From Eledone cirrhosa (lineage: Eukaryota), in assembly GCA_964016885.1 (NCBI GenBank), contig OZ024743.1, positions 232,376,001-232,440,000 of the forward strand: 64,000 bases of DNA, read 5' to 3'. The position numbers and the translations under genes were made by a program. The notes beneath the pieces are model-generated. The model ran no database searches. It saw only the letters and a list, made by a program, of their open reading frames with translations, and had not been told where the DNA came from. This document shows positions 13,391 to 63,585 of the stretch, one piece after another. Each line of letters starts with the position of its first letter. Position 1 is the first letter of the stretch.

Positions 13391-13597
13391 TAAAATAAAG
13401 TTAAATAAAAGTCAAATGATTAAAATTTAGCTTCGTTTATTACTGCTATATATATTTCAGTGACAGCCATCTTTGGCTGTGACCTCTTCAAACTGCCTGA
13501 AGAGGTCACAGCCAAAGATGGCTGTCACTGAAATATATATAGCAGTAATAAACGAAGCTAAATTTTAATCATTTGACTTTTATTTAACTTTATTTTA
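13391..13597. repeat. Perfect ~100-bp-arm palindrome carrying a hammerhead
   Basis: Arms 13391-13490 / 13498-13597 with spacer aactgcc. Confidence 0.92.
13492..13546 (+). ncRNA. Type I hammerhead ribozyme, family B (intact)
   Basis: ACTGC-CTGAAGA-GGTCACAGCCA aaga TGGCTGTCACT-GAAA-TATATA-TA|GCAGT. All core nucleotides present; stem III ATATATAT is palindromic. Confidence 0.9.
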
Positions 13598-13999
13598 TAT
13601 ATATATATATATATATATATATATATATATATATATATATACACACACACACACACACTCACATATATATATGTCGAAACGACCGGGGCTCAGCCGTCGG
13701 TCTTTCTGAATCTTTTCCTATTACCAACTCTACTTCCCCAAGTATCGAGTACTCTGGTGCGTTATTGTCCACCTGGTATCTTACCACACCCTCTTTGTTT
13801 ATATATATACATATGTATATATGTTTATCCTGGGCTCTACGGGGATAACTACGGTATGTATGTTACACAATACATACCATGGTATATCTATATATGTATA
13901 TATATACTATCGCTGGGATGGACACGTGTTAAACTTGCTCGGTAAGTTTTGTTTAAATGTCCTTAGAAATTTGTCATTGTGAACTTTTAATTTTATACC

Positions 14000-16900
14000 A
14001 ATTTGTAGAAGGACTGACAGGTCAAATTTTGATCTGGTCAGTCCTCCAAAATATCGTGCCCCTCAGGGCAAAAACATCCAAAATATTTTTGAAAAACAGT
14101 ACATTTTAAAAAGAAATTGCCGAAGCACCTACTTCTTTGCCAAAACAAGAAGATGGGAAGGGAAAGTCATGCCTACTTGACCAGCAGGTAGTAGCAGACA
14201 TGGACAAAAAAGGCCAACATCATCGCCTCAACATCTAGAAGTGGAACAAGCTTCAGCTGCTTGTAAGCAACTGAACACGCCTGACGTCACAAACGTCACA
14301 TGTATCCACACACAGAAGGATATATATGTAGCAAACACTTCCTTTCGTAAAGAAATGGAAATCACACAACAAAAATTGAAAATAACAGCCCACAACAGAC
14401 ACCAAAAAATACAGAAAATGAAAAAAATGAAAACACATCCAACAATACCAATCAAAAGGAAAAAATTGTCAACACAAACACCAAAGAAAATACAAACAAC
14501 AGTGACAACAACAACAAGAAAGACAACAACAGCAAAATTTCTTTTGTTGATACAGTAAAAAAAACGGAAATATTTCAACTTTTGGATTTAACCAACGCGA
14601 AACAAAAGTTGGAAGAAGCTAAACAATATGTGACTTTTGGACCCAATGGGTCATTTAGCATAAATTCACCACAAGAACTAAGGAGAGAGAATGCCCTGCA
14701 AATGCATAAAAAAACCCAGCTCAACTATCTCAGAGTGAGATTGAGCTAGTTTTAAGGAACCACATGGATAAGATTTTATTCATTCAGAAAGCCAAACTTT
14801 TCGGCAGCATCTTGGCGCTAATGAAAAACAACATAACAGCACAAAAATATTCCATCGCGCCCATTGTGTCCACCCATTTTATATTTTTCCCTACATACAT
14901 GGGAAAAAGAACGCAAAAAATAAAAATTACATGCATAAGATCCAAAGTAGATATTTGCTGGACACTTTATGGCCTAATTGACTTTGAACAAGACATTTTG
15001 ATCTCAGTAGGAAAATCCTCCAGAGATATATTTAGTGGGACTAGCGTCGAAATTCTGGTGCAGATCAGCCCAGAATGTATAATGACAATCCCACAGAGAG
15101 TACCTCTGGATGGACAGACCTACATAAACATTTCGGTTGAGGGTAGGCGGCCCGCATGTTACCACTGCGCAACTAGAGGTCACCTAAGGGCTGCCTGTCC
15201 TCAATTGACAAAAAAAAAACCACTTTTACCAACACCACAAATAACAACACAACCACCACCACCACCACCACCACCACGACAAGAAAAAACAACAGCGAAC
15301 ACTATCCCACCCAACCCCTCCCCACCCAAAACAAATACAAAAACACACACAGACACTACAGAACCCCAAAGCATACCCCTACCCATCAACACGGATGAGG
15401 AACCCCTATCGACGGCACCCAGCGGCGATGAGGAGGAACCCTTCAAAACCTGCAAAAACATCTGGATCTCGCAACATAGACGGTACATTTGGACCCGGAG
15501 GGTCGACTAGTGGTTCTGGACCTTGGCAGTGGGGAAGGCGGAGCGTTTAGATTGGTAGCCGTCTACGGCCCTTTCGCGTCAATGCGGTCGGACTTCTTCC
15601 ATCGTCTGGAGACTTTTCTAGGGACGTCCCGCTCCTTGCTATTAGTGGGGGACTGGAATGGTATCCTAGATGCAAGTTGGGACTACGTAGGGGCCTGTCC
15701 CGATAGAGAGGGGTGTAATAGCCTCAAAGGGTTAATCGGTCGATTTGACCTGGCCGATAGATATCGACTAGATTTTCCGACTGCGCCAACCTGGACTTGG
15801 GCAAACCGCAGCGGATCATCTAGGTCGTACCTAGATAGGTTCTTAGTTAGAAATAAGGATAAGGACTTTTTAAGTTGTCCAAAAATGCGCATGGTTGGCT
15901 ATTCAGACCACAAGTTAGTGACCTGCATGGTCAGCCTTAACAGAACGCATAGACAGGGACCCGGTTACTGGAAGCTCAACTTGTCCTTACCGGCAAGTAA
16001 GGCTTACAGGGACCGGATTAGCACTTTAGTTAATGAGCGGTTGACGGGCGCCATCGTCAACAGCAGGTGGTGGGGATCTCTCAAAAGAGAGATTAGAGTA
16101 GTCTCTATAGAATTTAATAAGGAGTTAGCCTCAAATATAAATAGGAAGGAAAGGGAGTTGGTAGATAGTGTAGAAGAGGCAATTAGAAGCGGTGACGTGG
16201 CCAGAGTGCTAGCGTCGAGAACGGCCCTGGGCCAGTTCTTCGACGCGAAACACGAACGCTGCATCGTCCGAAGCAAAATACGTGCTCTGGGAAACGAGCA
16301 CATAGAGAGGGTTGGGAACGAACCCGGCTTTGGCGGGGCCCTGATCAACTTGGATCAATCTAAGGCGTTCGATAGGGTCGACCATGGTTACCTGGATGCG
16401 GTGCTAGCGGCGGCAGGCTTCGGACCCGTTTTCAGGGGCTGGATCAATACCATACACAGCAGCGGCATCTGCTCTAGGGTCAAGGTGAACGGCTACCTCT
16501 CGGAGCCGTTCGAAATCGCGCGGTCCATCCGACAAGGGTGCCCTCTCTCCTCCCTTCTGTATGTAATGACTCTAGAGCCACTGCTGCGGAAGTTGGAGTT
16601 GTTGCGGGGCATCCCGTTGGAACCGGGATTGCGGAAAGCGGTGTCGGCCTACGCCGATGACGTAACAGTAATGGTGTCGACGGCCTCGGAAAACGGGGCG
16701 ATCGGCACCTTACTGGAGGAGTACGAAAGGTTTACAGGGGCTAAGATGAACCGGGACAAGTCGATCGGTCTGCAACTCGGCACGTGGAGGGGCAGATCGA
16801 TGCGCTGGACGGAGGGCCCGGTGAAGTTGCTCGGGGTCTGGTTCGGACCAGACCTCCAGGTGGAGAAGATCTGAGGTGAGGTAACGAACAGGGTGTTTGC

Positions 16901-62367: not shown

Positions 62368-63020
62368 TGAATGAAGAATGGCGTGCTGCGTTGTTGCGGA
62401 CGTAAACATATGAATAAAAGTAGACCAAGAGATAAAATGTCCTCATCAGTAGTCTGCTGATTATCGTTGGTATTTCGACGCATTAAAGACTAGATACTTA
62501 AAATCAGTGCGAGCGATAACTCAATTAAGTTATCGGGACAGTGGGAAAACACAGGGAGGAAACAAACACATGGTACTAATTCAACGTAAAGAGAGGAAAA
62601 CAGTGACAAGTCAATGAATCCTGTGGGCTTAAGTCCGACAAATCAAATTGACGAGGAGAAATAGACACGTCCGAGCCGCGAGAAGATTGAGAGAGGAAAG
62701 AAATTCAAGCAGGTCAGACGGGAGGAAGTGAGAGAGCGGGAGAATAAGAGAGGGAATGAGTGAAAGTGTGAGGAAGAGGCCAGCCAACAGTGAGTGACCA
62801 GCAGCGGGAGTAGAGGAAGGCAAGAGGTGAAGGCGAGAGAAAAGGTGATAGCTGTAAGGTGACAGAAAAAATACAAACCACAGCGAAGGAAAAAAATATG
62901 TGAATGAAGAATGGCGTGTTGCGTTGTTGCGTATATGAACATAAGAATAAAAATAGACCAAGAGATAAAATGACCTCATCAGTAGTCTGCTGATGATCGT
63001 TGGTATTTCGACGCATTAAA
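62368..63020 (-). mobile_element. Second copy of the 30.8-kb direct-repeat element (period 533 bp)
   Basis: 62368-62486 is repeated at 62901-63020; the internal part is homologous to 30900-31265. Confidence 0.87.
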
Positions 63021-63245
63021 TATATATATATATAAATATATATATAAATATATACATATACATATATCTATCTATACATATACATATATATATATATATA
63101 TATATATATATATATATATATATATATATATATATATATATATATATATATTTATATGTAGGAGGTGAGTTTTATTGTAGTACTATAAAGCAATGCAGAT
63201 ATCGGATAAGAAGCACTCTACAGTTTGTAGGACGGGAGTATACAT

Positions 63246-63585
63246 AATATATAAGATCAAAAGATGGTTAAAAGAGTTCCATGTATTTTATTATGCGCAT
63301 TTCAAAAACAAATATCATCATGCAATAACATTTGTATTTTCATCAGATAAAATAGGAAGACATGATATGAAGGTTAAAAAACACTTGTGAATAGTGCAGT
63401 TTTAAATCAACATGATATGTTGATATAAAACTGCACTATTCACAAGTGTTTATTAACCTTCATATCATGTCTTCCTATTTTATCTGATGAAAACACAAAT
63501 GTTATTGCATGATGATATTTGTTTTTGAAATGCGCATAATAAAATACATGGAACTCTTTTAACCATCTTTTGATCTTATATATTA
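63246..63585. repeat. Second family K palindrome (hammerheads 63284-63354 -, 63476-63546 +)
   Basis: Same structure as 60778-61112 with copy-specific substitutions. Confidence 0.93.

Follow-up and report, generated by a model that had tools for sequence, protein, structure and literature searches.

The 64,000-nt stretch of DNA analysed here (the window) carries many candidate hammerhead ribozymes in which stem III, directly after GAA, is a short palindrome whose sequence varies between families. This raises the question of whether the palindrome lets two RNA copies cleave together and, if so, whether it also decides which copies may do so. We consider it likely that the palindromic stem III of one copy pairs with that of a second copy in a double hammerhead that also swaps stem I, and that families are incompatible by divergence, with no dedicated code. 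The practical value of this genome lies in natural pairs in which the two recognition stems are uncoupled: K and H have the same stem I and different stems III, B and H have the same stem III and different stems I, and G is a predicted bridge.

All eight palindromes listed in the original prediction are in place after GAA (family letters were assigned to sites by window order and are presumptive). The descriptor scan recovered a family B hammerhead, from core to cleavage base, at 13497–13541 (+), with stem I ACTGC/GCAGT and stem III ATATATAT at 13533–13540; its inverted partner at 13447–13491 (−) has ATATATAT at 13448–13455 (−) and the core TTGAAGA, in which C3 is changed. Family H has the same palindrome on stem I TTTTAT/ATAAAA at 35380–35426 (+, ATATATAT from 35418), and further H hammerheads lie at 45731–45783 (an inverted partner; −, ATATATAT at 45732–45739) and 45911–45961 (+, ATATATAT from 45953). 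The family K hammerhead at 61015–61069 (+, stem I TTTTAT/ATAAAA, stem III ATGCGCAT from 61061) is partnered in inverted orientation by 60821–60875 (−, ATGCGCAT at 60822–60829), and that at 63484–63538 (+, ATGCGCAT from 63530) by 63292–63346 (−, ATGCGCAT at 63293–63300). Two family G hammerheads, at 36575–36623 (−, ATATGTAT at 36576–36583) and 40663–40711 (+, ATATGTAT from 40703), form a divergent pair enclosing RT-like fragments at 38802–40261 (−), and another G copy, at 33615–33664 (+), has A15.1 changed to G. Truncated G-type ends without a core form an inverted pair at 61612–61661, with ATATATAT on the minus and ATACATAT on the plus strand.

Family C, with ACTAGT, is represented by a hammerhead at 18996–19026 (+, ACTAGT from 19020) and by a same-strand run that opens at 23476–23506 (+, from 23500) and is followed by a copy without its 5′ part and core at 23829–23838 (+, from 23832) and a hammerhead at 24213–24243 (+, from 24237). 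The family D hammerhead at 19552–19590 (+, ACAATTGT from 19582) has a shortened inverted partner without a core at 19486–19497 (−, ACAATTGT at 19487–19494). Family F is present from GAA to the cleavage base at 32132–32143 (+, ACGCGCGT from 32135; the decayed core lies about 60 bases upstream, with a long stem II insert), at its inverted partner, 31965–31976 (−, decayed stem III ACGCACGT, core likewise decayed), and at 44642–44653 (+, ACGCGCGT from 44645, core decayed). Two families have ACCGGT, at 34986–35015 (+, from 35009; core TTGAAAA) and 47907–47937 (+, from 47931; core TTGATAA), and family J has ACTAATTAGT at 60235–60244 (−) within 60234–60304 (−), with a branched stem II. Among the window copies, decay or shortening affects both listed F copies, neither of which has an exact core, as well as the truncated C (23832) and D (19494) copies and the minus-strand B copy.

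The listing of palindromic stems III was real but left out a non-palindromic family of the same window. Its AGAACT stem III occurs at 2751 in a hammerhead at 2724–2757 (+), downstream of RT-like ORF pieces at 52–2147, and at 29412 in a second copy at 29385–29418 (+); an AGAACT-type hammerhead at 42228–42261 (−) has AGATTT at 42229–42234 (−) and follows RT-like ORF pieces at 42760–43945 (−). The exact core CTGANGA is found in copies of B, C, G, H, J and K; it does not extend to D, which has CCGAAGA (U4C, likewise in the other D copies seen), or to either ACCGGT family, in which TTGAWAA gives a U3-A8 pair. The F core reads CTGACGA in F copies elsewhere in the genome.

We scanned 1.264 Mb with a descriptor that is blind to palindromes, since within stem III it prescribes no base other than the initial A and the final U (a first, over-strict descriptor gave 8 matches). 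There were 101 hammerhead matches, 54 with a perfectly palindromic stem III and 68 with a self-complementary one when G·U is included; the same descriptor gave 2 matches in reversed sequence and a single one after local shuffling, and no palindrome was among them. Clustering yielded 27 clusters versus 0 in reversed DNA. Five were removed before the count (four from one AT-rich satellite block on C7, L183–L192, and one doubtful), and the 22 retained comprise 15 whose palindrome is perfect, 1 that relies on G·U, 5 of odd length with an unpaired centre and 1 of AGAACT type (the palindrome of f16 was set to ACGT after a tie). Stems I and II flank the core and the ends open in stem I, the layout of type I hammerheads. 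Stem I has 3–11 consecutive pairs in the 22 clustered families and just 1–2 in three hand-added copies (F, 47.9 kb and 2.7 kb), and in many families stem II is flanked on both sides by an unpaired base. Rfam returned no hammerhead at the gathering score; of its 401 weaker matches, the 150 listed included no hammerhead and were microsatellite hairpins, but this blank says little because the variants here depart from the curated models.

A similarity search of the genome itself with a K copy returned no candidates, and counts were taken from pattern searches instead. These point to tens of thousands of hammerhead copies at Penelope-like retroelement ends in the 3 Gb genome; a short-range F pattern found only 12 sites because the F core lies so far upstream. 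Among 328 sampled sites, a divergent partner was present within 6 kb at 161 and a tandem partner, that is, a same-strand copy of the same family, at 84, whereas another family lay on the same strand within 6 kb at 229. Family C is in same-strand tandem at 22 of 30 sites.

Judging by sequence and layout, the motifs are probably type I hammerheads at the ends of many Penelope-like families. The divergent partners at 161 and tandem partners at 84 of the 328 sites agree with the Penelope-like layout of PMC8557442, with direct terminal repeats, an inverted 5′-truncated copy and a (TA)n bias, and the ends of K adjoin (TA)n. An ORF with RT and C-terminal GIY-YIG lies beside a hammerhead repeat for K and for the 47.9 kb family. 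[quoted passage not shown] In L056, tandem K hammerheads lie on either side of a 738-aa frame; the Atlas clusters nearest to it have scores of 0.94–0.96, and some of their members carry HTH_animal, GIY-YIG and RVT_1. Pfam found nothing on this frame or on 9 of the 11 other scanned window frames of that type, and a PDB search with it gave nothing relevant; because Pfam is mostly blank, several families are assigned to Penelope from the Atlas, from motifs read by eye and from layout.

Pairing of one RNA strand with another is under selection. The F superfamily has 1,809 pattern matches, and among the 100 matches listed the central four bases are AATT in 23, ATAT in 16, GCGC in 13 and ACGT in 2. 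Perfect palindromes account for 54 of these 100, compared with a mean of 18 and a maximum of 36 after column shuffling, and the innermost pair is complementary in 70 versus 33. Since the innermost pair cannot form within one strand, this covariation argues for pairing between strands. In one sequence context the G·U form ATATGTAT has 17,719 copies versus 74 for its C·A mirror ATACATAT, although copy counts reflect few amplified master lineages, so that both this figure and the covariation represent few independent events. As a decay control, the central CG of K decays symmetrically (324 versus 328). A tree of 26 short F-type copies set AATT apart from GCGC; it was not used as a test because its support is modest and stem III itself is included in the alignment.

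Folding energies agree with the dimer type proposed in the original prediction, for which the literature, the innermost-base covariation and the preference for G·U over C·A also speak. In a nearest-neighbour model (one chosen copy per family, core and tertiary contacts ignored), the lone stem III hairpin is unfavourable in 23 of the 23 able to close, and 2 cannot close, whereas homodimers gain 6–16 kcal/mol in all eight families modelled. For two branches of the F superfamily, AATT and ATAT, no intact copy matched the pattern, so this table does not contain them; in the AGAACT family the dimer stem III has just 2+2 pairs. Stem III is thus self-complementary and unstable alone. That it is “too tight to fold alone” held for seven of the eight families modelled; J, with 3 bp and a 4-base loop, closes as a monomer (1.3 kcal/mol) and is marginally stable.

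Hammerhead topology suggests that, in the double hammerhead, one copy would supply each core with CUGANGA, stem II and GAAA, while U16.1, the cleavage base and the stem I 3′ strand would come from its partner. Because each core would be built from both copies, a partner must match in stem I as well as in stem III. Selection keeps each lineage self-pairing, as the covariation shows, while the palindrome probably drifts by compensatory steps via G·U intermediates, and the divergence of both stems would, as a side effect, leave families mostly unable to pair with one another. Most genomic copies are probably dead insertions in inverted pairs; such pairs were rejected as dimer partners, the partners being on opposite strands. 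Cleavage would take place within tandem or multimeric transcripts, or else between two separate molecules, and the protein of the element probably assists.

The same energies, with cut-offs of 1 kcal/mol and 4 bp that are our own choice, predict that 271 of 300 family pairs are blocked by both stems, 8 by stem I only, 19 by stem III only and 2 by neither; the predicted loss in stem I exceeds that in stem III in 250. The swapped stem I is predicted to stop 8 of the 10 palindrome-compatible pairs, including B+H, which should fail (+9.4 kcal/mol, 0 and 1 stem I pairs) though the palindromes are identical. By contrast, K+H is predicted to be blocked by stem III alone (+3.6 versus −15.9 and −9.2 kcal/mol), and either of the two, H (−3.1) or K (−5.3 kcal/mol), is a predicted partner of G. 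The palindrome would thus decide pairing in K+H and f11+f19 but not in B+H and seven other pairs. It is predicted to separate, by itself, only sister lineages with a common stem I, such as K and H, and we rejected it as the sole determinant of the partner. Two of the pair tests that had been proposed are confounded, as B+H is predicted to fail on stem I and K+C differs in both stems. In the largest superfamily, stem I TTTTAT/ATRAAA is common to all 50,946 matches, and among the 100 matches listed the centres are GCGC (49), ATGT (31), ATAT (10), ACGC (4), ACGT (2) and others (4). Stem III is the only discriminating stem there, as a code would look.

It nevertheless seems unlikely that the palindrome is a selected dimerisation code, in which sister lineages sharing stem I switch palindromes to end cross-cleavage. 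Several discrete centres on a common stem I are what such a code would leave, as are the three discrete states of the F superfamily and the pairs K/H, f11/f19 and f20/f21, each with one stem I but two different stems III; families can also meet, as the same-strand neighbours at 229 of 328 sites indicate. However, compensatory drift would give the same discrete states, G is predicted to bridge H and K, and several lineages that differ in stem II retain both ATATGTAT and a common stem I. Identical palindromes occur in 5 pairs among 17 palindromic families versus 1.6–1.9 expected (P 0.02–0.04), that is, above chance rather than below it. ATATATAT, ACTAGT, ACCGGT and ACAATTGT each recur in unrelated-looking families, so the palindrome alone is not a family-specific key, and the proposal of a general family code is not supported. 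Compatibility in stem I and stem III has no negative link (odds ratio 3.6, P 0.15), and neither this nor the palindrome-sharing test gave a sign of selection against cross-talk. We regard as doubtful, too, the narrower version in which lineages sharing stem I use the palindrome as a self/non-self key, K having left a cross-cleaving guild of AT palindromes via a G·U bridge from ATATATAT to ATGCGCAT and the F superfamily having split three ways likewise. If palindrome switches were selected, they would amount to RNA-level kin recognition and interference among transposons.

Two further readings concern what the palindrome is for. It might mainly join two element RNAs, in an RT-endonuclease particle or for template switching, with cleavage secondary or protein-assisted within one molecule. 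The anole Penelope-like hammerhead cleaved only with protein (a protein dimer is predicted), insertion in vitro did not require this cleavage, and RNA ends were not observed at the site; moreover, most copies here are without a same-strand partner of their own family, and the unpaired bases beside stem II and U4C in D may lower activity. We still find this reading very unlikely: core bases are kept and change in compensation (C3-G8 versus U3-A8), which points to catalysis, and published dimeric constructs of motifs of this kind cleave without protein, though weakly. A DNA-level feature or mutational artefact (a dimeric protein site, hairpin-templated correction or (AT)n spill-over) could draw on the 1,855 occurrences of ATATATAT in the window, on the 4 of 10 GAA+ATATATAT sites that are microsatellite edges and on the fact that a palindrome reads alike on both DNA strands. 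Yet ATATGTAT and ATACATAT are one double-stranded near-palindrome in two orientations, and their strand bias largely refutes a DNA-level palindrome or AT-microsatellite spill-over, which we rejected. The symmetric decay of the K centre, motifs whose limits coincide with A15.1 (start) and U16.1 (end) of a complete hammerhead, the frequency of GC-rich palindromes and the lack of palindromic matches in the controls leave it extremely improbable.

The double hammerhead with swapped stem I that we favour has several counterparts, and the hammerheads of the window are a richly stocked example of a known design. Small-helix-III type I hammerheads of Penelope-like elements were reportedly treated by Lunse, Weinberg and Breaker in 2017. 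Cervera and De la Pena 2014 (PMC4209133) described minimal type I hammerheads with a small helix III in the pseudo-LTRs of metazoan Penelope-like elements; the palindromic helix III, cleavage as dimers and the idea of restriction to multimers are already published (PMC4209133, PMC6765202), and what is added here is sequence evidence for pairing between two RNA strands. As regards restriction to multimers, only 84 of the 328 sampled sites here have a tandem partner of their own family within 6 kb. Those hammerheads share with ours the type I layout, palindromic 15.2–16.2, a large stem II, the U3-A8 variant, many families per genome, copies that are mostly dispersed or in opposite-strand pairs, few of them in full elements, and the dimer model. 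They differ from the present ones, in which palindromes reach 8–12 bases, stem II inserts span 50–90 bases in some families (F, J, f26), unpaired bases flank stem II, D has U4C and copy numbers are high (50,946 matches in one superfamily).

Animal non-LTR retrozymes (PMC7229834; bioRxiv 10.64898/2026.07.22.740005) are short same-strand repeats with one type I hammerhead, and the axolotl ones have motifs that are poor at cleaving singly but good at it in dimeric form; according to the preprint, retrozymes descend from Penelope pseudo-LTRs. In layout, family C (466-base period in L145) and f15 (period about 320 bases) fit such tandem repeats of 150–500 bases, whereas K, G, H and B, which are chiefly in divergent inverted pairs and not arrays, do not. 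Avocado sunblotch viroid and newt satellite 2 form double hammerheads (Forster 1988 via PMC6155905, PMC6466107) in which an unstable stem III, as also seen here, is rescued by merging two stems III in the oligomer. There, however, each replicon has one sequence, whereas more than 20 families coexist in this genome, and the question of cross-talk therefore arises. The nearest precedent for a code is the dimer-initiation palindrome of retroviruses (the HIV-1 DIS loop), a short, lineage-specific RNA palindrome that biases pairing to like partners through a kissing loop without catalysis. In the present hammerheads, by contrast, the palindrome is a ribozyme helix, and a second stem must match as well.

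As originally noted, each of the eight palindromes comes after GAA where listed, in each case running from A15.1 at its start to U16.1 at its end within a type I hammerhead. A stricter descriptor, in which only the first A (A15.1) and the last U (U16.1) of stem III were fixed, returned 101 matches in 1.264 Mb (the window plus 120 sampled stretches of the genome), with stem III a perfect palindrome in 54 and self-complementary allowing G·U in 68. As controls, reversed sequence gave 2 matches and shuffled sequence 1, with no palindrome among them. A looser descriptor applied to 1.864 Mb yielded 472 matches versus 17 in reversed sequence, and 27 clusters versus 0; eighteen 100-kb blocks were sampled, two picked for dense family K and two flanking the window. 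Five of the 27 clusters were left out (four representing one satellite block, one doubtful), and stem III in the 22 retained was a perfect palindrome in 15, a G·U form in 1, odd-length with an unpaired centre in 5, and AGAACT in 1. The original list had omitted an AGAACT/AGATTT family at window positions 2724, 29385 and 42261. None of these hammerheads was found in Rfam at the gathering score or among the 150 of 401 weak matches listed. A 100-kb AT-rich tandem satellite block (C7:30000001-30100000, stretches L183-L192) mimics the loose descriptor.

The stem III palindrome is under selection for pairing between two RNA strands. Stem III covaries in the F superfamily (1,809 matches), where the central four bases among 100 listed matches are AATT in 23, ATAT in 16, GCGC in 13, ACGT in 2 and other in 46; 54 of the 100 listed are perfect palindromes, and 10,000 shuffles gave 18 on average and at most 36. 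The innermost pair, which cannot form within one strand, is complementary in 70 of the 100 listed versus 33 shuffled. Likewise, for the superfamily whose stem I is TTTTAT/ATRAAA (50,946 matches), stem III is perfect in 61 of 100 listed matches and in 93 allowing G·U. There is also a strong strand bias: the form that pairs by way of G·U, ATATGTAT, numbers 17,719 matches versus 74 for the mirror form ATACATAT, in which C·A would be required. Such genome counts stem from a few amplified lineages and not from thousands of events. A DNA-level cause of this bias was ruled out, because the decay products of the central CG of family K number 324 versus 328 and mutation is thus symmetric.

Computed energies for the lone-hairpin form of stem III were unfavourable in 23/23 closable stems. 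The expectation that stem III is too tight to fold alone held in seven of the eight whole motifs and failed for J, which is computed to close by 1.3 kcal/mol. With the double hammerhead evaluated as a nested structure, homodimers have a predicted gain of 6-16 kcal/mol, and these motifs would be expected to cleave as dimers. Because U16.1 and the cleavage base run on without a break into the 3' strand of stem I, pairing of stem III across copies would entail pairing of stem I across copies, a swap that we infer from hammerhead topology.

This bears on partner choice. Among 25 families (22 clustered, 3 hand-added), predicted blocking in the 300 pairs, under our own cut-offs, involved both stems in 271, stem III only in 19, stem I only in 8 and neither in 2, and stem I loss exceeded stem III loss in 250/300. 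Families B and H have ATATATAT in common, yet their stem I strands make 0 and 1 pairs with each other (computed at +9.4 kcal/mol), and K and C are computed to mismatch in both stems; the heterodimer tests proposed originally would therefore not isolate the palindrome. That the palindrome is a selected kin-recognition code appears quite unlikely. It would account for K+H and f11+f19 (two clustered families), which share stem I and are computed to be separated by stem III alone (+3.6 kcal/mol for K+H). However, G is predicted to pair with both H (-3.1) and K (-5.3), suggesting that the states are connected by a neutral route. Several lineages of differing stem II also keep both stem I and ATATGTAT unchanged. 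Nor was avoidance of shared palindromes seen among the 17 palindromic families: five pairs have an identical palindrome where chance predicts 1.6-1.9 (P 0.02-0.04 for so many), an excess that shared ancestry can explain, and compatibility in stem I shows no negative link with that in stem III (P 0.15). The original proposal of a family code is predicted to hold for K+H and f11+f19 and finds no support as a general rule; the motifs themselves and selection on their pairing stand. Partner rules probably follow from both stems, and drift is the probable cause of palindrome divergence.

Family K has 14,819 and 16,441 genome matches by two patterns, with ATGCGCAT as stem III in 92 of 100 listed. 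In stretch L056, a 738-aa frame lies between two same-strand K motifs; it had no Pfam or PDB match, and in its nearest Atlas clusters (scores 0.94-0.96) some of the members have HTH_animal, GIY-YIG and RVT_1. The 47.9 kb motif has an RT fragment and a GIY-YIG domain (E 1.2e-7) upstream on the same strand. Among 328 non-redundant sites, same-family partners within 6 kb are divergent on the opposite strand at 161, same-strand at 84, convergent at 23 and absent at 113, in overlapping classes. The two members of an inverted pair lie on opposite strands and are unable to act as partners within a single transcript. A nearby same-strand partner of the same family exists at only about one in four sampled sites, and at 229/328 a motif of a different family lies within 6 kb in the same orientation. 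Cleavage may be limited to multimeric transcripts or may also take place between separate molecules. Family C is in tandem at 22/30 sites (466-base period in L145), with same-strand arrays of 466-538-base periods at L145:453-2343, L084, L055 and window 23476-24243. Family f15 (52 genome-wide matches; L047, L048, L081, L126), often in tandems ~320 bases apart, has an 11-12-base stem III that occurs mainly as ACAAGGCCTTGT or ACAGGGCTCTGT and is of sufficient length for lone folding with 4 pairs. Both families look like candidate non-LTR retrozymes.

Cores vary as well: TTGAWAA in the ACCGGT families, CCGAAGA in D, and decayed in F copies. The CCGAAGA (U4C) core (window 19552-19558, L118, L120) is shared by every D copy seen and also by family f25, which rules out decay and indicates inheritance. 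Thirteen of the 22 families (f2, f5, f8, f11-f14, f17, f19, f21, f22, f24, f26) fit best with an unpaired base either side of stem II by the core; T frequently faces T there, or C faces A, where G10.1-C11.1 would normally pair. In F and its relatives (window 31965-32143, 44580-44653; L151-L162), stem II carries an insert of ~60 bases in which GAGCTG is conserved; stem I has ~3 pairs, and a distal helix may lie beyond. A repeat family of hammerhead-like layout with a conserved CTGATGA box (window 30811-30866, 31296-31351, 62396-62449 and 62929-62982, minus strand; also L033, L039, L066) has a long insert followed by GCAAC/GCAAT in the expected GAAA position, and this non-canonical second box means either that the core is altered or that the lineage is dead.

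The window (C4:232376001-232440000 of a 3.0 Gb assembly whose size and content point to an animal genome) is AT-rich with many microsatellites, and its broken RT frames belong to several retroelement types. Among the non-LTR elements are one present as two broken copies (20553-23284 and 50900-54461, minus strand), which has endonuclease, RT and, at the C-terminus, C2H2-like zinc fingers, a GC-rich non-LTR element (14351-17948, plus strand) with an ORF1-like zinc-knuckle frame before endonuclease and RT, and fragments of a third non-LTR RT (56545-58291, plus strand; one piece RVT_1, E 1.8e-5). Between two K pairs (61152-61360), the short unit AAGCCGTTTCGACRGCTATTTCTG occurs twice with inverted matches close by, perhaps a small DNA-transposon end.

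Retroviral dimer-initiation palindromes are a comparison system for stem III. Among hammerheads, Cervera and De la Pena 2014 (PMC4209133) describe palindromic helix III, dimers, and control through the formation of multimers; in their account a genome has many families that vary, with pairs on opposite strands and a U3-A8 core, and there is no cleavage by the monomer and weak cleavage by dimer or trimer. Four reviews (PMC6765202, PMC6466107, PMC7761336, PMC6155905) give the same picture and confirm the viroid and newt precedent. Other papers report dimer rescue of axolotl motifs (PMC7229834) and an anole motif that needs protein to cleave and is not required for insertion in vitro (PMC11167929). 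A family-specific palindrome code was not found in the literature searched; Lunse 2017 and the PMC4209133 supplements may bear on this point. The tandem-plus-inverted layout seen here is described for Penelope-like elements in PMC8557442, and a 2026 preprint derives retrozymes from Penelope repeats (bioRxiv 10.64898/2026.07.22.740005). The hammerheads reported here add members to this already described design.
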